This document shows, piece by piece, positions 36,557 through 43,868 of a stretch of DNA of 43,868 nt (position 1 is its first letter; each line of letters starts with the position of its first letter). Made by a program: the position numbers and the translations under genes. Under the pieces are notes generated by a model. The model had not been told where the DNA came from and ran no database searches. It was given only the letters and a program-made list of their open reading frames with translations. The DNA comes from an uncultured Bacilli bacterium (GTDB lineage Bacteria > Bacillota_I > Bacilli_A > RF39 > UBA660): positions 1 through 43,868 of the forward strand of contig CALVYE010000001.1 of assembly GCA_944372025.1 (NCBI GenBank), given 5' to 3'.

Positions 36557-37468
36557 TTACTTATAATAATCTCTAATGTCTTCAATTAAATTCTTATTAA
36601 ATTTTTTGTTTCTAATCATTTCTATTTCAAATTTATATGGTGGATATAATCTCTCTTTACTTTCATCATTTGGACTAACATATGGAGTTTCTAATATTTT
36701 AGGTATATTTTGAAGTTTATCATTGTATATAATTTTTATTAATTTATCAAAGCCAAGATATCCAAATCCTATATTTTCATGTCTATCCTTTTTAGTTCCT
36801 ATTTCATTTTTACTATCATTTATGTGTATACATGCAATTTTTTCTATTCCAACAATTTTATCAAAATCCATTAATACTTTATCAAAATCTGAAAGATCAT
36901 AACCTGCATCATTTAAATGACATGTATCTAAACAAATCAATATCCTATCATCATTTTGAACATTATCAATTATTTCTTTTATCTGCTCAAATCTATAACA
37001 ACATTCCGTTCCTTTACCACTCATAGTTTCCAAACATATTTTTACATTACTTTGCTTATTTAAAACCTCATTTAAACTATCAATAATATTTTGTATACCC
37101 TTTTCTATACCAATTCCAACATGGCTTCCTGGGTGCAAAACAAGTTTGTTTATTCCTAAAGTTTCACATCTATTTATTTCTTGTTTCAAAAACCTAATTG
37201 CAAAATTTCTTTTTTCTTCATCTCCACTTGCTAAATTAATTATATATGGGGCATGTACTACTACATTTTTATAATCGATGTTATTTTTTTTCATTAAATT
37301 TAAAGCTAACTCAGTTTTTTCTTTATTAATATCTACTCTATTTGTATTTTGAGGAGCACCTGTATAAAACATAAAAGTATTTGCTCCATAACTTAATGTT
37401 TCTTCAACACACCCTAATAGTTGTTTATCTTTAGTAAAAGAAACATGTGAACCAATTATTAAGTTCAT
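36557..37468 (-). CDS. nfo: endonuclease IV (deoxyribonuclease IV)
   Basis: 'IGSHVS', 'VVHAPYIINLAS', 'LVLHPGSH', 'ICLETM' and 'CLDTCHLNDAGYD', the TIM-barrel metal ligands of Nfo. Confidence 0.9.
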   Translation of the reverse strand: MNLIIGSHVSFTKDKQLLGCVEETLSYGANTFMFYTGAPQNTNRVDINKEKTELALNLMKKNNIDYKNVVVHAPYIINLASGDEEKRNFAIRFLKQEINRCETLGINKLVLHPGSHVGIGIEKGIQNIIDSLNEVLNKQSNVKICLETMSGKGTECCYRFEQIKEIIDNVQNDDRILICLDTCHLNDAGYDLSDFDKVLMDFDKIVGIEKIACIHINDSKNEIGTKKDRHENIGFGYLGFDKLIKIIYNDKLQNIPKILETPYVSPNDESKERLYPPYKFEIEMIRNKKFNKNLIEDIRDYYK

Positions 37469-37485
37469 CTTATTACCTACTTTCT

Positions 37486-39276
37486 CTAATTGTTTTTTGT
37501 AACTATTAACATACGTTTATTTTCAAATAATATTTTTACGTTTTCTAAATCGTTTTTGTTAAAATCATCCTTAAATATTATTAAATTTTTATTGGTTTCA
37601 TTTTTATACCAAGATTTTAAACTTTGTTTATATTTATAAGATATTAAATTGCCGTTATAATTATATTTTGGAAATATATCAGTTAATGCTTCCACCCATC
37701 TTAATTGCCAATAGTTTCCTATTGTTGATATTTCATTATTTTCATTTATTAGTTTTTCTTTATTGTTTGTAATATATTTAATTCCATCTATACAACTTTT
37801 ATTTAAAGTATCTATTGGATTTAAAATCAAATCAAAATTATGATTATATATATCCATTGTTTGTGATAAAATAGTATTTCCTGTGAGTTCAAAATTAAAT
37901 TCTTTAAGTCTTTCTTCGAATTTAAAAATCGAAAAAAAGAATATTAATATATATGAAATAATAAAAGATTTAAAAATCAGATTATTGTCTTTTTCAATTT
38001 TAATTAAAGCAATATATACTAAGTGCCAAGATAATAACCATATTAAAAAATAAGTTTTATGAAAATAATAAGCACTTAAAGAACCACATAAAACACTAAA
38101 TAATAATAGAGATACAACAATAACAGTAAAAATACATAGTATTTTTATAAAATTTTTTTCTTCTAATAATTTATATCCATATATAATAAAAGGTATTAGC
38201 AAAATAAAATTTGAAATAAAATTTTTATAAGACATTCCTTCGGAGGTTATCCCACTTGTAAATTCTTCAAAATTAGAAAAATTCGGTACTAAAAAATATA
38301 AACATCCAAATATAAAAGGTATTATTAAAGAAATTAGTATTAATAATAGAAATTCTTTTGATTTAATTTTATTATTTTCTTTATATATGTGTGTGAAGTA
38401 TATAAGTAAAGATGGATATACAATTGGTACAAATATATAATATGAGCAAAAAAGTCCAAAGGTTAAAATATTAAATACAAAAAAAGAATATATTTTATTT
38501 GAATCATTAATTTTGTACTGACTAATAAAATTAATAATTGTATTTATTATTAATATTCCAATTCCCCAATAAAATAAACCGTAAAGTAAATTATTTAATG
38601 GATATCCTAGAGTATATAAAATTGTGACAAAAAATGCAAGTAATATGTTTTTTTTTCTTTTTTCTTTTTTAGAAATTAAATAAAAGCTATACCCTGTTAA
38701 TACAAATAAAAACAAATTAAATATTACAAATATTTTGTATAGATCTAATATACTTAAAAAATTAAAAGATTTAAAAAGCATTCCTAAATTTACATAGCCT
38801 AAAAATTGAAATCCATTACCATAATTTTGAGCATTTTTAATATTTAATGTTGTATTCAATGAATCTCCCAATGCAAAATATCTAGAAGAGGTAAAATGTG
38901 CAGCTGCATCTGGCGAATTATAACTAAACAAAAAATCTTTGGTGAAAAAAAGAAAAAATACAATTATGGATATTATAATTAAAATAAATAAAATAATTAT
39001 ATCGCTTTTTCTAAAATAAAAACTATTGATGTTCTTTTTCTTTAGAATATCATATAAAAAATATAACGATGGAATTAAATTTAAAATTGTCATAGAAATT
39101 AATGTAATAGGAATGTATAGTAAATTCAATATATAAGCGCAAAATGAAGTATAACACATTATTACAACAATATTAATAGTTATCAAAAACATAACATTAA
39201 CTTTTTTATCAAAAAATTTTTTAAAAGTCAAAGTTATAAGTAATAATAATGTTGATAAAATATACAATAAACTCAT
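37486..39276 (-). CDS. polytopic membrane protein (596 aa, ~13 TM + ~120-aa C-terminal soluble domain); possible GT-C-type glycosyltransferase
   Basis: Very hydrophobic F/I/L-rich ORF. SD GGAGGG sits directly behind the pilin terminator. The first large loop carries 'SYNSPDAAAHFTSSRY'. Co-oriented with nfo, with a 17-nt gap. The fold class is an inference only. Confidence 0.5.
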   Translation of the reverse strand: MSLLYILSTLLLLITLTFKKFFDKKVNVMFLITINIVVIMCYTSFCAYILNLLYIPITLISMTILNLIPSLYFLYDILKKKNINSFYFRKSDIIILFILIIISIIVFFLFFTKDFLFSYNSPDAAAHFTSSRYFALGDSLNTTLNIKNAQNYGNGFQFLGYVNLGMLFKSFNFLSILDLYKIFVIFNLFLFVLTGYSFYLISKKEKRKKNILLAFFVTILYTLGYPLNNLLYGLFYWGIGILIINTIINFISQYKINDSNKIYSFFVFNILTFGLFCSYYIFVPIVYPSLLIYFTHIYKENNKIKSKEFLLLILISLIIPFIFGCLYFLVPNFSNFEEFTSGITSEGMSYKNFISNFILLIPFIIYGYKLLEEKNFIKILCIFTVIVVSLLLFSVLCGSLSAYYFHKTYFLIWLLSWHLVYIALIKIEKDNNLIFKSFIISYILIFFFSIFKFEERLKEFNFELTGNTILSQTMDIYNHNFDLILNPIDTLNKSCIDGIKYITNNKEKLINENNEISTIGNYWQLRWVEALTDIFPKYNYNGNLISYKYKQSLKSWYKNETNKNLIIFKDDFNKNDLENVKILFENKRMLIVTKNN

Positions 39277-39292
39277 AAACCCTCCGTATATT

Positions 39293-39319
39293 AAAAAGCA
39301 AACTGCATGTTTGCTTTTT
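39293..39319 (-). terminator. rho-independent terminator directly after the pilin gene
   Basis: 11-bp perfect arms aaaaagcaaac/gtttgcttttt with a 5-nt loop. Confidence 0.65.
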
Positions 39320-39345
39320 AATATTATTTATTTTTTAAATTTTTA

Positions 39346-39786
39346 TTATCCAGATATTGAAAAACCATCTGAACCGATTTCAGCTTTTAATTCTGATGTA
39401 GTGCTAGGTCCATCAATATAAATACCATATCCATTTGAAGAATATTTGAAGTTTGATATTTCGTAACTATCAGCACTATCACCTATGGTATAAAAATATG
39501 TATTACTACTATTAGATACACCGCTTGCAGTAGATACACTTTTGTCAGATCTTTCATAATAACCCTCTAAATCTTCAGGACCACAATTATCAGTATTTTG
39601 TTCAGCAGCCATACAAGTTTCTATAGATTTGATTAGCATTAAAGCTTCATCTTTAGTTGTGTTTTGTTTTGCTGTTCTTTGAATATTTAATACACTAGGA
39701 ACCGCAATAACTAAAATGATTGCTAAAATAACGATAACCGCTAACAATTCAATCAACGTAAACCCTTTTTTATTTAATTTTTTCAT
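39346..39786 (-). CDS. type IV pilin / pseudopilin-like protein with prepilin N-terminal cleavage-methylation motif
   Basis: 'MKKLNKKG|FTLIELLAVIVILAIILVIAV' is the canonical G/FTLIE class III signal with Glu+5. There are two Cys (C58, C68) in the globular part. SD GAGGAGG. Confidence 0.85.
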   Translation of the reverse strand: MKKLNKKGFTLIELLAVIVILAIILVIAVPSVLNIQRTAKQNTTKDEALMLIKSIETCMAAEQNTDNCGPEDLEGYYERSDKSVSTASGVSNSSNTYFYTIGDSADSYEISNFKYSSNGYGIYIDGPSTTSELKAEIGSDGFSISG

Positions 39787-39817
39787 GATAAATTTTCCTC
39801 CTCTATTTTATAATATA

Positions 39818-39846
39818 AATATATCACAGCAATATTTTTTATGCAA
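39818..39846 (-). promoter_or_regulatory. putative sigma-A promoter of the pilin gene
   Basis: The minus strand has TTGCAT (39841-39846), a 17-nt spacer and TATATT (39818-39823), about 30 nt upstream of the ATG. Confidence 0.45.
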
Positions 39847-39878
39847 TAGGTAATCGCAAATAATTATCAAAATAATCA

Positions 39879-40436
39879 CTAAATTTTACAACAATTTTTA
39901 TAAATATATAAATATGTAGAACCATATTTTTTTTGTTTTATGAGTTCTAAATTTTTAATGTTTTTATCTAAATATTCAGTATCAAATTCACAAATTATTA
40001 TACCACCATTATTAATTAAATTTTTTTCTATTATTTTATTAATAATATCATTTAAAATATGCATTTTATATGGCGGATCTAAAAAAATAATATCAAATTT
40101 AATTTTATTATTTTTAAAGTGATCCAAAGCATTTGTATAATCACTTTTAATAACTTTTGTTTTATTTTCAATATTAAAATCATTTAAATTTTTATTTAAG
40201 ACTTTAATAGCATCTATACTTTTATCTACAAAATAGCATTTTTTTGCGCCATTACTAATAGCTTCAATTCCAAGTGAACCACTTCCCGCAAATAAATCTA
40301 AACAAATAGAATCATTAACATAACTTTGAATAATTCCAAATAAACTTTCTTTTACTCTGTCCATGGTAGGTCTTGTACCATCTAAAGTATAGCCTAAAAT
40401 ATTTCTTCCTTTTAAAAAGCCACTAATTACTCTCAT
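39879..40436 (-). CDS. rsmD: 16S rRNA (guanine966-N2)-methyltransferase RsmD
   Basis: 'MRVISG..KGR', 'TRPTMDRVKESLF', 'DLFAGSGSLGIEAISNGA' and 'FLDPPY'. Confidence 0.9.
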   Translation of the reverse strand: MRVISGFLKGRNILGYTLDGTRPTMDRVKESLFGIIQSYVNDSICLDLFAGSGSLGIEAISNGAKKCYFVDKSIDAIKVLNKNLNDFNIENKTKVIKSDYTNALDHFKNNKIKFDIIFLDPPYKMHILNDIINKIIEKNLINNGGIIICEFDTEYLDKNIKNLELIKQKKYGSTYLYIYKNCCKI

Positions 40437-40938
40437 TTACATCACCTACAATAAATTCAATTTTACAATTGGTAAGCTTTTTAAGTCTTTTAATTTCTAT
40501 TCGCTTTTGAGTTTCTAAAAAAATGAAATTATATACTGCTTCCCAAACAACTACCCAGCTTATTATTAACAAAGTTTCTGGTATCCAGGATAACTCAAAA
40601 TTGTTTAAAAAATTATAAATACATATTAAAAATATTCCAACAATAAACAATATTAATCCTTTAACATTAGTATATTTAATGTATAGCATATTTTCTTTGA
40701 TATCTATTCCATAGTTTGAACGTATCATATCTACAATTTTTTCTTTTTCATCATCAGTAAATTGTTTTGAAGTGTGAATATTTATTTTTATATTTTCTTT
40801 TAAAGAATTACCTTTACATTCACTATAAATATAATTACTTAACTCATCGGATAGTGTTGTATTGTTAAATTTATTTGTTATATCATCTAAATTATCTACT
40901 GTAATATTAATGTTAATTTCTTTATTATTCATATTCAT
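40423..40938 (-). CDS. hypothetical membrane protein (171 aa, 2 TM)
   Basis: Intact ORF whose stop overlaps the rsmD start by 14 nt. Two hydrophobic helices lie in the C-terminal half. The start may be the third codon (ATG at 40932), which has better SD spacing. Confidence 0.5.
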   Translation of the reverse strand: MNMNNKEININITVDNLDDITNKFNNTTLSDELSNYIYSECKGNSLKENIKINIHTSKQFTDDEKEKIVDMIRSNYGIDIKENMLYIKYTNVKGLILFIVGIFLICIYNFLNNFELSWIPETLLIISWVVVWEAVYNFIFLETQKRIEIKRLKKLTNCKIEFIVGDVNESN

Positions 40939-40962
40939 ACTCCATTCTTAAGATATTATATA

Positions 40963-41010
40963 ACAAAAAAAATATAAGATAAATATTTTTAAATAAATTT
41001 ATCTTATATT
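40963..41010 (-). terminator. strong rho-independent terminator after the 886-aa gene
   Basis: 13-bp perfect arms atataagataaat (40971-40983) and atttatcttatat (40996-41008), extended by A/T runs. T8 tail on the minus strand. Confidence 0.7.
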
Positions 41011-41039
41011 TTAGTTTATAGTGTTTGTTTATATATCCT

Positions 41040-43700
41040 TTATGGAATTAGGACTACGCGAAACCCGTCGTTAGAACTAGATGTACCATTATTGACGTTG
41101 GAGTAGACGACACCCGCAGTGGACGTAGTAAGATAGTTACCACCACGATTAGACCAAGGAAGACTAACATATGGAAAGTTATAGGCGTCGGAATACCATC
41201 TCATAGTTTCATATGTTGCATCTCCTTTGATTGATTTTTCTGATGTTATACTACTTGAACTTGTTCCTGTATATTTTTCATAATATTTACTTCCATTACT
41301 TCCTCCTGGAAAATTACTTGTTGTAAATCCTGAACTCCCTACTGTTCCTGCCCAGTTACTCATTGTGTATTCATACGATCCTCCACTCATATCATATATT
41401 CCATATATCGTCCCTGTTGTTGAAGCCCCTGTCCCTTTTCCTGCTACTTTTTCTCCTTTTGTATTTGTATTATAATTTAATAAATAATCATCGTATGTAT
41501 AAAAACCATATGTAATATATTGTGTTGTACTACTTTGATCTGGATATGTTTCATTTATTGGTGTACTTCCCCCTGGTCCTCCTCCACTTCTTCCTGTATA
41601 GTGACTTGAACTATTATTTTTATATATTTCTTTGTTAACTCCACTGTAATTAGGATTTCCCATCTTTCCATATTTGCTTTGGGATAAGTACGCTACTGCT
41701 CCCCATTCGGTATTCTTCATCATGTGTGTATCTGTACTTGATGTTAATCCATATGTTGCATTACCTGAGAATGTTACTGTTCCATTACTTGTACTTCTTG
41801 TTCCTCCTGCAAACTTCAATGATGTATCAAATTGGGTACTTACATTTTGACTTCTTAATGCTGCTACATCAGGTTTTATTGTTGGTGTTGTTGAACTTCC
41901 ACTTGTCTCAAATTTTCCTACCCAGATTCCTTCTAACTCTTCATCCCAGCCTCCTTGGTCATATGCTGTTGTTTTGTATACACTGCTTCCATCCCTAAAT
42001 GCTGGATGTGTATAATAACAACTTGTTGATGTGATTGAACACGATTCTAAAGCAGTACCCGTTGTATTTGTTCCACTTTCAAATACTACATCTATTTCTG
42101 GTGGACTTGTTACTGCACTACTACTTCCTATATTTGATGGTATTCTATATTTATATCTTGGTATCCATACCCACATACTATTTATTGAACTCATCGGTAT
42201 TGTCGTTCCTGGAGAAGCTGTTCTATATGTTGAAGAACTTGTCGTTACTGCATTCGCCCATATTCCATTTTCATAATCATGCCATGCTTGTTTTGTGTTA
42301 GCCTTTACCCAGTTCCCTGTTGTACTATTATATACTACCGGTATCATTCCTTCTGTTAATTCTGGTTCATTCGCTCCACTGCTATCAGAATATATCTTTG
42401 TTAATTTTGCATATCCATTTCCAGATTGAGCTCCGGTTTCTCCTGAGGTATTATCTCCACTTGAAAAACTTCTTGTTTGATATGAAGATCCACTCCATCC
42501 TCCTCCATAACTTTGGTTATCATCGGCGCATCCGCCTCCTCCAAAACCACCTCTACATATTCCACTATTTCTTGTGTAATATCCTCCTACTGAGTTATAA
42601 CTTATGAATTGAGAAATCCCTAATACGGATGATAGATTCGCTGAAGTATTACTACTTGTTCCTGCTGCTGTAGTTTTACTATATGCAGTTAGGTTACTTG
42701 GTGAATACCATGTGTCTCCAACTCCATCTTTTCCATCGTATGCTGAACCTCTATACGAACTATCTCCAGTTCCTCCTCCACCTGCTGCTACCATTAATAC
42801 TTCATAATTTGTTGAATCTTTAGTAAATTGATAATTACTATTACTTATTGATGATATTGTTTTGAAGATAAAAGTTCCTCCTCCACCTGCTCCACTTGTT
42901 CCATCTTTTGCCGTTGCCTGTGTTACACTTCCTTGGCCTCCTACTACTAAGGTAATTACATCTCCTTTATTTAAATTGAATTTTGATTTTAGTTTAGCTC
43001 CTTTTCCTGGCACTGGTGTTGTCGATGAGGTATATGAATATTCATTTCCTCTTGTTCCTTCTGCTCCTGCTACTTCTATTTCATATAACCCTGTCTCTGG
43101 TATTGTATATGTTCTTACTGCTCCTGTATATGAGAATGTTGTTGTATTACTTGTTGTCTCTATTGTTTCTTTAGATAATGATGAGTGTCCACTACTTAAG
43201 GATACACTATTATTCTCATATCCTCCTTCTACTCCTATTTCTACTGTTAAACTTGATGTTGATGTATTCTTTACTGCTACCATAACTTCTGTAGATGCTC
43301 CTGATTCCAATACTGTAGATTCTACACCTGGACTTATGTATGCAATCTTTACTGTTGAACCACTTGGTAAACTTGATGGAGTTATTGCGTCATAGTAAAC
43401 TTTATATTTTGCAGTTATTGGAGAATTATTAGTTATTGTAAAATTTATATATTTTGTTACTCCTGCTGCTACGGTTATTCTCTTTGTACTATTACTATAT
43501 GTTGTATCTGTTGATGTGATTGAAAAATTTACTGTACCGGCAGTAATTGAAGCTACATTAGTTTTTTCTACTGTTCCTGAAAATAAAGCTAAAGATTCAT
43601 ACAACACAAAACCTAGCATTGATAATGCTATTACAAATAGAACTATAATTTCTCTTATATAATATTCTTTTTTTAATATTTCCCTAATGCTAGTCCACAT
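41040..43700 (-). CDS. large exported Ser/Thr/Gly-rich protein: SipW/TasA-type leader + beta-rich domain + ALK/LTK-type glycine-rich domain + divergent FGE-sulfatase-like domain
   Basis: SD AGGTGA. Hydrophobic segment at aa 15-35, then 'SLALFSGTVEKTNVASITAGTVNF'. At aa ~186-436: 'FSYTGAVRTYTIPETGLYEIEVAGAEG...LVVGGQG...GAGGGGTF...VAAGGGGTG...GGFGGGGC...YGGGWSG'. At aa ~445-886: 'MWVWIPRY', 'HPAF', 'GIWVGKFE', 'NTEWGAVAYL', 'GIYDMSGGSYEY', 'RGGNY' and terminal 'GFRVVLIP'. Confidence 0.8.
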   Translation of the reverse strand: MWTSIREILKKEYYIREIIVLFVIALSMLGFVLYESLALFSGTVEKTNVASITAGTVNFSITSTDTTYSNSTKRITVAAGVTKYINFTITNNSPITAKYKVYYDAITPSSLPSGSTVKIAYISPGVESTVLESGASTEVMVAVKNTSTSSLTVEIGVEGGYENNSVSLSSGHSSLSKETIETTSNTTTFSYTGAVRTYTIPETGLYEIEVAGAEGTRGNEYSYTSSTTPVPGKGAKLKSKFNLNKGDVITLVVGGQGSVTQATAKDGTSGAGGGGTFIFKTISSISNSNYQFTKDSTNYEVLMVAAGGGGTGDSSYRGSAYDGKDGVGDTWYSPSNLTAYSKTTAAGTSSNTSANLSSVLGISQFISYNSVGGYYTRNSGICRGGFGGGGCADDNQSYGGGWSGSSYQTRSFSSGDNTSGETGAQSGNGYAKLTKIYSDSSGANEPELTEGMIPVVYNSTTGNWVKANTKQAWHDYENGIWANAVTTSSSTYRTASPGTTIPMSSINSMWVWIPRYKYRIPSNIGSSSAVTSPPEIDVVFESGTNTTGTALESCSITSTSCYYTHPAFRDGSSVYKTTAYDQGGWDEELEGIWVGKFETSGSSTTPTIKPDVAALRSQNVSTQFDTSLKFAGGTRSTSNGTVTFSGNATYGLTSSTDTHMMKNTEWGAVAYLSQSKYGKMGNPNYSGVNKEIYKNNSSSHYTGRSGGGPGGSTPINETYPDQSSTTQYITYGFYTYDDYLLNYNTNTKGEKVAGKGTGASTTGTIYGIYDMSGGSYEYTMSNWAGTVGSSGFTTSNFPGGSNGSKYYEKYTGTSSSSITSEKSIKGDATYETMRWYSDAYNFPYVSLPWSNRGGNYLTTSTAGVVYSNVNNGTSSSNDGFRVVLIP

Positions 43701-43739
43701 TGTATCACCTATTTTATTGTACTTTATCTCATTATTTAA

Positions 43740-43768
43740 AGTATATTATATTTTTGACATTTTTTCAA
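43740..43768 (-). promoter_or_regulatory. putative promoter of the 886-aa gene
   Basis: The minus strand has TTGAAA (43763-43768), a 17-nt spacer and TATACT (43740-43745), about 40 nt upstream of the ATG. Confidence 0.4.
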
Positions 43769-43868
43769 TATAAAAAATATTTCAATATTAATATTTTATA
43801 TAATAGTAGAATAAAAACTGAAGTGCACAGAAGTAGTGCAGTAAATATTAAAAAGAAGTATAATAACA

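Follow-up and report, generated by a model that had tools for sequence, protein, structure and literature searches.

The 36.5–43.7 kb region of an uncultured Bacilli bacterium contig (CALVYE010000001.1, assembly GCA_944372025.1), in which genes for an 886-amino-acid (aa) exported protein, a 146-aa type IV prepilin and a 596-aa polytopic membrane protein lie among rsmD, nfo and a small membrane-protein gene, is probably best explained as a housekeeping backbone (thiI-SASP-...-171aa-rsmD-pilin-nfo-...-PBP) carrying two independent variable slots, and not as a single surface-appendage locus. The window, meaning the whole 43,868-nt stretch analysed, is contig C1 of a source assembly of 1.16 Mb in 98 contigs, 93.7% complete and about 23–25% GC; G000 denotes this source genome, G with a number a related genome, L with a number a comparison locus and C with a number a contig. 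According to the list of open reading frames (ORFs) of the window, the minus strand carries every gene of the region, and the ORFs, strand and coordinates reported in an initial annotation of this DNA were all borne out, with nfo sitting just beyond the start coordinate (37486) of the interval considered there. The features are:

41040–43700, minus strand: 886-aa exported modular protein, slot A (ORF; homologues and AF2 model)
40423–40938, minus strand: 171-aa protein with two C-terminal transmembrane (TM) helices (ORF; overlaps the start of rsmD by 14 nt)
39879–40436, minus strand: rsmD, 16S rRNA m2G966 methyltransferase, backbone (TIGR00095, 2.2e-50, above cut-off)
39346–39786, minus strand: 146-aa type IV prepilin (N_methyl and TIGR02532 matches)
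39288–39324, no strand assigned: hairpin between the pilin and GT-C genes (GCAAAC-loop-GTTTGC and then a T-run, read on the minus strand)
37486–39276, minus strand: 596-aa membrane protein of predicted GT-C fold, slot B (AF2 and Foldseek)
37485–39678, minus strand: strain-variable 2.2-kb cassette of the head-coding part of the pilin gene, the hairpin and the GT-C gene (blastn against L136)
36557–37468, minus strand: nfo, endonuclease IV, backbone (NF002196, 2.7e-127)

It had been proposed that the pilin, a pilin-modifying membrane enzyme and the large protein cooperate as subunit, modifier and tip adhesin, with co-conservation and adjacency across relatives as the suggested check; the three genes are not kept together, and occur in relatives in separate combinations. 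A sister species (L010) carries the pilin and GT-C genes without the large protein, a 51-aa ORF occupying slot A; L136 carries the large protein and the pilin without the GT-C gene; L092 and many genomes of the family carry the pilin without the other two; and homologues of the large protein at 80–82% identity lie beside unrelated genes in L013 and L135. The large gene occurs at slot A elsewhere only in L136, which is conspecific, while slot A of L090 holds a 328-aa gene on the opposite strand. Since the three genes assort independently in relatives they do not form one locus and, as judged from gene order, the 886-aa protein is not linked to the pilin locus.

The sharpest comparison is with L136, a conspecific strain by its rsmD (97%) and nfo (98%) amino-acid identities, in which the order is SASP, an 885-aa protein (90% identity), 166 aa, 169 aa, rsmD, a 145-aa pilin and nfo, with no GT-C gene. 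Alignment of the window with this locus by blastn gave the following blocks:

43805–41037: 90.4% DNA identity
41006–39679: 94.1% DNA identity
39678–37485 (pilin head, hairpin, GT-C): no counterpart, with 473 bp in its place
37484–34142: 96.5% DNA identity

The left boundary of the unmatched 2.2-kb block falls inside the pilin gene, just past the conserved alpha-1 helix, the L136 pilin being 65% identical over its N-terminal 82 residues and unalignable thereafter; the pilin head and the GT-C gene therefore differ between the strains as a single cassette. The same pilin allele (95% identity) recurs in L137, from another sample, again with the GT-C gene next to it, and the sister species L010 keeps the pair with a GT-C protein of 62% identity. 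Between the pilin and nfo, the source genome, L137 and the sister species thus share a GT-C gene, L090 has a gene for a 216-aa zinc-ribbon polytopic protein, L094 one for an 833-aa leucine-rich-repeat (LRR) protein with two extra pilins before it, and L092 and L136 have none.

The pilin itself belongs to the backbone. The N-terminus of the 146-aa protein (MKKLNKKG/FTLIELLAV) combines a short basic leader, Gly-1, a hydrophobic alpha-1 and Glu+5, and matches PF07963 (N_methyl, 1.6e-8) and TIGR02532 (1.9e-8), both over cut-off, as expected of a type IV pilin with a class III signal; a prepilin peptidase, PilD, is encoded on contig C11. In 12 of the 28 other relatives' nfo loci (11 from the same taxonomic family and one from another) a prepilin ORF shares the strand of nfo and lies 50–110 bp 5' of it, and G011 has the order rsmD-pilin-nfo; the pilins at the nfo locus vary in the head and keep their N-terminal helix. 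Judged from this distribution the pilin is an old resident 5' of nfo, in an arrangement ancestral in the family, and conservation, size and expression signals read from the sequence suggest that the 146-aa protein is probably the major pilin. As an orphan it is not exceptional, with about nine further prepilin-motif genes scattered over contigs C2, C9/C29, C11, C21, C22, C29 and C59. The view that it occupies the position of coaD was mistaken: an insertion in place of that gene was rejected given the ancestral pilin-nfo arrangement and the result that coaD (TIGR01510) was not found in the whole genome, as represented by a 94%-complete assembly. The source bacterium, with its small genome, may separately lack the CoA pathway step that had been expected beside rsmD.

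The pilin gene is isolated, with rsmD on one side and the GT-C and nfo genes on the other. The candidate promoter assigned to it from the DNA (TTGCAT-17-TATATT) matches the -35 hexamer at 3/6 positions and has TG upstream of the -10; a sigma-70 pattern scan returned 66 sites where 61.8 would be expected, and so does not beat chance in this AT-rich DNA. The hairpin at 39288–39324 was borne out within a pilin–GT-C gap of 70 nt, the Shine-Dalgarno sequence of the GT-C gene (GGAGGG) following directly, and is probably a leaky terminator. As had been anticipated from the lack of PilB, PilC and PilD in the window, pilus machinery is found on contig C11, where a PilC-like gene (C11:17065-18780), PilD (C11:18795-19559) and a Tad-like set (two TadE-like, TadZ, TadA, TadB and TadC; C11:19.6-24.2 kb) accompany a PilB-like ATPase gene interrupted by the contig end; the 146-aa pilin therefore relies on machinery encoded elsewhere, and would depend on the single PilD for processing and on the PilB/PilC of C11 for assembly. 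A second T2SSE/TadBC-like set is present on C2. The cluster on C11 (C11:10822-26138) includes a 606-aa pilin–lectin-head fusion beside PilC, PilD, the two TadE-like proteins, TadZ/A/B/C and the truncated PilB-like ATPase, and a 387-aa modular type IV pilin with a full ALK/LTK domain (PF12810, 8e-48) and N_methyl is encoded at C2:33522-34685, adjoining a 117-aa pilin.

The occupant of slot B is, at the level of fold as predicted by AF2, a GT-C glycosyltransferase of an uncatalogued family, in keeping with the queried 'GT-C-like' label of the initial annotation. The 596-aa protein has no Pfam or NCBIfam match and belongs to no curated GT-C sequence family, and a sequence search of the PDB gave nothing useful; an exhaustive HMMER search placed it in a family of 612 representative clusters, nearly all of about 600 aa, and a Pfam check of 76 aligned relatives found nothing convincing, with one DUF6056 and one EpsG match. 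The AF2 model built from this 76-sequence alignment (pLDDT 92.8, pTM 0.94) has about 14 TM helices, where about 13 had been counted, and the top 15 Foldseek matches in the PDB are all GT-C proteins, including STT3 (8pn9_A), ArnT (5f15, TM 0.51), DPY19, AglB, AftA, ALG12 and Pmt4. Invariant residues of the family are D123, H127, Y279, G347, Y403, Y404, K407 and N480; D123 and H127, within the motif SPDAAAH, are invariant in both the 76- and the 12-sequence sets, D123, a candidate catalytic residue, lying in a 112–175 loop predicted to be external. An active site facing outside is expected of a lipid-linked-sugar transferase. Lysine and arginine counts over the modelled helices (14 in predicted cytoplasmic loops against 2 in short external loops) give a positive-inside topology that puts D123, H127, G347, Y403, Y404, K407, N480 and the 145-aa C-terminal domain outside the cytoplasm.

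Compared with the solved GT-C enzymes (STT3/PglB/AglB, ArnT, DPY19, AftA, ALG12 and Pmt), the overall fold agrees (Foldseek probability 1.00, TM 0.4–0.5), a conserved acidic residue lies in what is predicted to be the first large loop outside the membrane, and the C-terminal domain is likewise placed outside, whereas sequence identity is about 10%, no Pfam GT-C family is matched apart from the DUF6056 of one member, and the presumed catalytic loop comes after two additional N-terminal helices. The family is present in 3 of 61 related genomes. QueH and RuvB recur beside its genes as conserved synteny within one clade, and L014:4244-9188 includes a distant member (29% identity) with a 634-aa weak T2SSE match four genes downstream of it, among unannotated genes in what may be a filament-assembly cluster.

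The occupant of slot A is a different kind of surface protein. The 886-aa product is, by profile comparison and structure prediction, a TasA/SipW-type carrier with a glycine-rich domain and a lectin head, and not a pilin, which also runs counter to the tip-adhesin role first suggested for it. Its parts are:

43176–43700, minus strand (aa 1–175): signal-anchor with a SipW-type 'LALFSG' motif and a TasA/camelysin-like beta-sandwich (hhalign, AF2)
42399–43097, minus strand (aa 202–434): ALK/LTK glycine-rich domain (PF12810, 9.8e-10, 39.3 bits against a cut-off of 24.5)
41043–42392, minus strand (aa 437–886): head of C-type-lectin/FGE-sulfatase fold (AF2, PDB match)
41043–41177, minus strand (aa 842–886): hypervariable tip, at the same position as the variable region of the diversity-generating retroelements (DGRs) of sister-genome homologues (column entropy)

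Residues 18–172, leader included, align as a family profile with the TasA/camelysin-like proteins of the genome (hhalign probability 98.1, E 7e-14), although aa 1–190 have no direct Pfam match; the comparison proteins came from four tandem genes on C2 and an operon on C6, one of them passing the Peptidase_M73 cut-off. The C2 genes (C2:38450-40989) encode TasA/camelysin-like proteins of ~195 aa with 'FAYFTATATTT' leaders, and the C6 operon (C6:27943-29837) has the order tasA-like, 206-aa and sipW, its SipW scoring 101 bits with TIGR02228, above cut-off; the two loci probably make up a fibre system of TasA type. The 886-aa protein thus has the leader and the beta-sandwich of a SipW-dependent TasA/camelysin protein in a genome that encodes SipW. 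In both respects, and in the company of a tasA-like/sipW operon, it resembles B. subtilis TasA (PMC9674648) and C. perfringens BsaA/BsaC (PMC11580942); it departs from them in that the TasA-like module makes up only the first ~175 of 886 residues, followed by two large extra domains, and in that its fibre membership is a prediction. In the favoured reading a carrier module of TasA type, cleaved by SipW, is followed by a glycine-rich domain and then by a binding head whose last ~45 residues form a diversified ligand-binding tip. The gene has 36–37% GC, against about 23% for the genome, and its 90.4% identity to the conspecific copy compares with 94–96.5% in the flanks.

In the AF2 model pLDDT is about 90 at aa 59–175 and mostly >90 at aa 437–886, the glycine-rich domain being poorly modelled. 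Among PDB structures the head is matched best by TaqVP (5vf4, E 4e-7), a DGR variable protein with the C-type-lectin fold of formylglycine-generating enzyme (FGE) type, whereas sequence searches of the PDB with the large protein and its family profile gave nothing useful. An FGE function was rejected, as there is no Cys among the 33 invariant columns; PF03781 (FGE) has no match at E<=0.1 on the 886-aa protein, although a few homologues carry one.

Homologues of the whole protein were found at 90, 82 and 80% identity, and the C-terminal half has at least 3517 matches, most of about 600 aa, of which many carry the prepilin N_methyl domain (PF07963) and a few an FGE-sulfatase match. Within the source genome the head matches 17 places, representing at least 12 distinct copies over the same segment, with many at contig ends; in a 98-contig assembly this copy number is a lower bound. 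Some carriers are of SipW/TasA type (C22, C15, C34, C73, C5 and C51), and others are true pilins (the 606-aa protein inside the type IV pilus/Tad cluster of C11, C59 and C9/C29), so that, as the initial annotation had stated, heads with 'HPAF...WVGKFE' motifs do stand behind prepilin N-termini, both here and in many database homologues. The paralogues that combine a pilin module with the lectin head (606 aa, on C11) or the glycine-rich domain (387 aa, on C2) resemble the modular type IV pilins, such as S. sanguinis PilB/PilC (PMC8179133), from which the 886-aa protein is set apart by having no class III signal. The head family is confined to the taxonomic family of the source (17 of 36 genera) and one neighbouring family, and reaches 27–30 copies per genome of roughly 1.2 Mb. 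The surface repertoire of these reduced-genome gut Bacilli thus includes the same lectin head and glycine-rich domain grafted onto carriers of two kinds of fibre, a type IV pilin in one case and a TasA-like module in the other, with a head family that is multiplied to 12–30 copies per genome of roughly 1.1 Mb and, in sister genera, hypermutated by DGRs.

The evidence for the latter comes from three sister genomes in which a ~370-aa reverse transcriptase (RT) gene lies just downstream of a head-family member. In G025 and G013 a variable region (VR) at the 3' end of the gene is paired with a template region (TR), the one pair of 136 bp with 11/11 mismatches at template adenines and the other of 158 bp with 9/9, and the loci (L103, G025:C3:20500-27500; L104, G013:C11:1-5000) are complete DGRs in the order target, TR, small MutS-like gene (Msl), Avd and RT; at the RT locus of G006 no VR/TR repeat was found within a short contig. 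In G013 a glycine-rich-domain gene stands beside the DGR target. Just downstream of the 80%-identical homologue of the large protein in another metagenome (L013:11280-12536) there is an RT of group II intron type, not a DGR RT by its domains (RVT_1 and GIIM). The source paralogues have a column entropy of 1.2–1.9 bits at the tip, compared with 0.03–1.03 in all earlier 15-residue windows; of the invariant columns, 0 of 18 are A in the last 135 nt and 33 of 79 upstream, a signature that is suggestive only. The source head accordingly resembles the DGR variable proteins of FGE-type C-type-lectin fold (T. aquaticus TaqVP, 5vf4, PMC6328139; T. denticola TvpA) in its fold and in a variable patch at the extreme C-terminus, and the G025 and G013 homologues are true DGR targets, with RT and TR; it differs in that no RT or TR was found in the source genome, and in sitting on a TasA-like module with a glycine-rich domain in at least 12 copies.

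Given these data, it is very improbable that the three envelope genes make up one surface-appendage system of pilin (subunit), GT-C protein (modifier) and 886-aa protein (tip adhesin), an explanation largely refuted by synteny. All three products are envelope-directed and encoded in the same orientation within 6.4 kb, and the head and glycine-rich domains of the large protein are also fused to true pilins in the genome, yet all pairwise and single combinations occur in relatives, the N-terminus of the large protein is of TasA/SipW and not pilin type, the protein belongs to a set of at least 12 paralogues dispersed in the genome, and rsmD and a terminator-like hairpin separate the genes. The PilA3-dependent secretion of BsaC in C. 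perfringens, a published link between a pilin and a TasA-family operon (PMC11580942), keeps a distant functional connection between pilin and TasA-type proteins conceivable. For annotation the lesson is that envelope genes co-oriented around housekeeping genes are not evidence of a system; here the strain-level comparison decided. On the basis of position and cassette polymorphism, the pilin and the GT-C protein alone would form a reasonable but unproven functional unit. Pilin glycosylation is understood in detail for a few Gram-negative pathogens, in which it changes how susceptible the cells are to phage and how the immune system recognises them. The GT-C protein would draw a sugar, on the outer side of the membrane, from a polyprenyl-phosphate carrier and attach it to Ser/Thr in the head of the pilin, either while the pilus is assembled or earlier, like TfpW acting on the group IV pilin in P. 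aeruginosa; such glycosylation of the head is a tentative but credible role. In P. aeruginosa tfpW is a GT-C gene directly 3' of pilA and required for pilin arabinosylation/glycosylation (bioRxiv 10.1101/2020.04.19.049825), and a role of pilin glycosylation in phage defence has been described there (bioRxiv 10.1101/150227). Like group IV pilA-tfpW(-tfpX), the locus has a polytopic GT-C-type gene directly 3' of that for the probable major pilin; gene and pilin allele travel together, being exchanged between strains as a unit, and other strains have another accessory gene or none in the slot. Unlike TfpW, with its DDX motif and C-terminal periplasmic TPR, the 596-aa protein has SPDAAAH with a single invariant Asp (D123) and His127, a 145-aa alpha/beta C-terminal domain with no TPR match, and no detectable sequence relation to TfpW; the host is a monoderm, a small-genome gut Bacilli member, and pilin glycosylation, known for TfpW, is here a prediction. 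No dedicated GT-C enzyme linked to a monoderm pilin was found, though no literature search was aimed at one.

A broader and more speculative reading treats the pilin-nfo gap as what corresponds, in a monoderm, to the Pseudomonas island of pilin accessory genes; the 596-aa protein would then found a GT-C family, as yet uncatalogued, whose target for O-glycosylation is a type IV pilin of a Gram-positive gut bacterium, and head and enzyme would be exchanged together between strains, plausibly under phage/host pressure. Several observations weigh against tying the enzyme to the pilin. Among 37 reference-genome loci retrieved with the 12-sequence GT-C alignment, a pilin adjoins the GT-C gene in one, that of a same-genus metagenome-assembled genome (Bacilli bacterium RGIG3080, goat rectum), the neighbours in the other 36 being GT2 (13), GT1/GT4 (7), Glycos_transf_4 (4), GtrA (3) and sugar epimerases/dehydratases; G004 has three GT-C paralogues within an array of large membrane proteins; and, as these neighbourhoods indicate, the family is not tied to pilins in general. 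The L090 pilin head is 66% identical to the source head, yet its accessory gene is that of the 216-aa membrane protein, and in the sister species the GT-C gene is paired with an unalignable head; head and enzyme therefore do not strictly co-vary. With about the same probability as for pilin glycosylation, the GT-C protein may instead modify a wall glycopolymer or lipoteichoic-acid-like acceptor, in the style of YfhO/GtrC, its gene having landed by chance in a recombination-prone pilin-nfo gap. This would fit the polysaccharide-synthesis neighbours of the 36 of 37 family loci without a pilin, a wall-polymer cluster on C19 that comprises four GT2 genes along with an ABC exporter and further large polytopic proteins, and the unrelated genes (for the 216-aa membrane protein and the 833-aa LRR protein) that the slot also takes; it sits less easily with a cassette boundary within the pilin gene, by which head and enzyme moved together, with retention of the pair in a sister species at only 62% identity, with the tight ~70-nt gap and its hairpin, which suggest read-through from the pilin promoter, and with the lack of an adjoining GT2 or GtrA partner here. 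Should the pairing of pilin and GT-C protein be functional, the locus would offer a small system of two genes open to testing, for which a conspecific allele lacking the enzyme already exists in nature.

An assignment of the 146-aa pilin to a competence (Com-type) DNA-uptake pilus, as major subunit and without an adhesive role, is unlikely: the genome has ComEC and a single detected PilB/PilC/PilD-type set besides the Tad-like systems, and the pilin N-terminus scores with the ComGC, ComGE and GspG models, but the gene lies outside any comG operon and its head is strongly diversified among strains, as is commoner in exposed, selected pilins. The refuting option of a simple ComGC-type pseudopilin fails on the model score (NF040999, 33.5 bits against a cut-off of 75, with residues 6–56 alone matched), and ComGC was rejected as an identity for the pilin on this score and the lack of a comG operon. 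More doubtful still is ongoing DGR diversification of the lectin-head paralogues, the 886-aa protein included, with RT and TR missing from a fragmented assembly. The hypervariable C-terminal tip at the VR position, the lack of an invariant adenine in the last 135 nt, the active-looking DGRs beside homologues in three sister genera and the GC-rich 3' end shared by several copies are what this would predict; against it, RVT_1 was not found in the source genome, nor was a TR-like extra copy of any paralogue 3' end, both of them searches of a fragmented, 94%-complete assembly and not proof of absence, and variation at the tip extends to 111 of 129 columns instead of being limited to a few positions. 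The source copies look fixed, as descendants of DGR-type heads.

The remaining gene of the region, for the 171-aa membrane protein, is by its overlap translationally coupled to rsmD. Homologues occur in 9 of 41 relatives, as tandem duplicates 5' of rsmD in L090 and L136 and at other locations in G001 and G004; in relatives generally the 171-aa-type gene is often a tandem pair 5' of rsmD. In L136 an additional 166-aa paralogue lies between the large gene and the 169-aa copy (L136:8662-9511, against window 41007–41036), where the window has a single copy.

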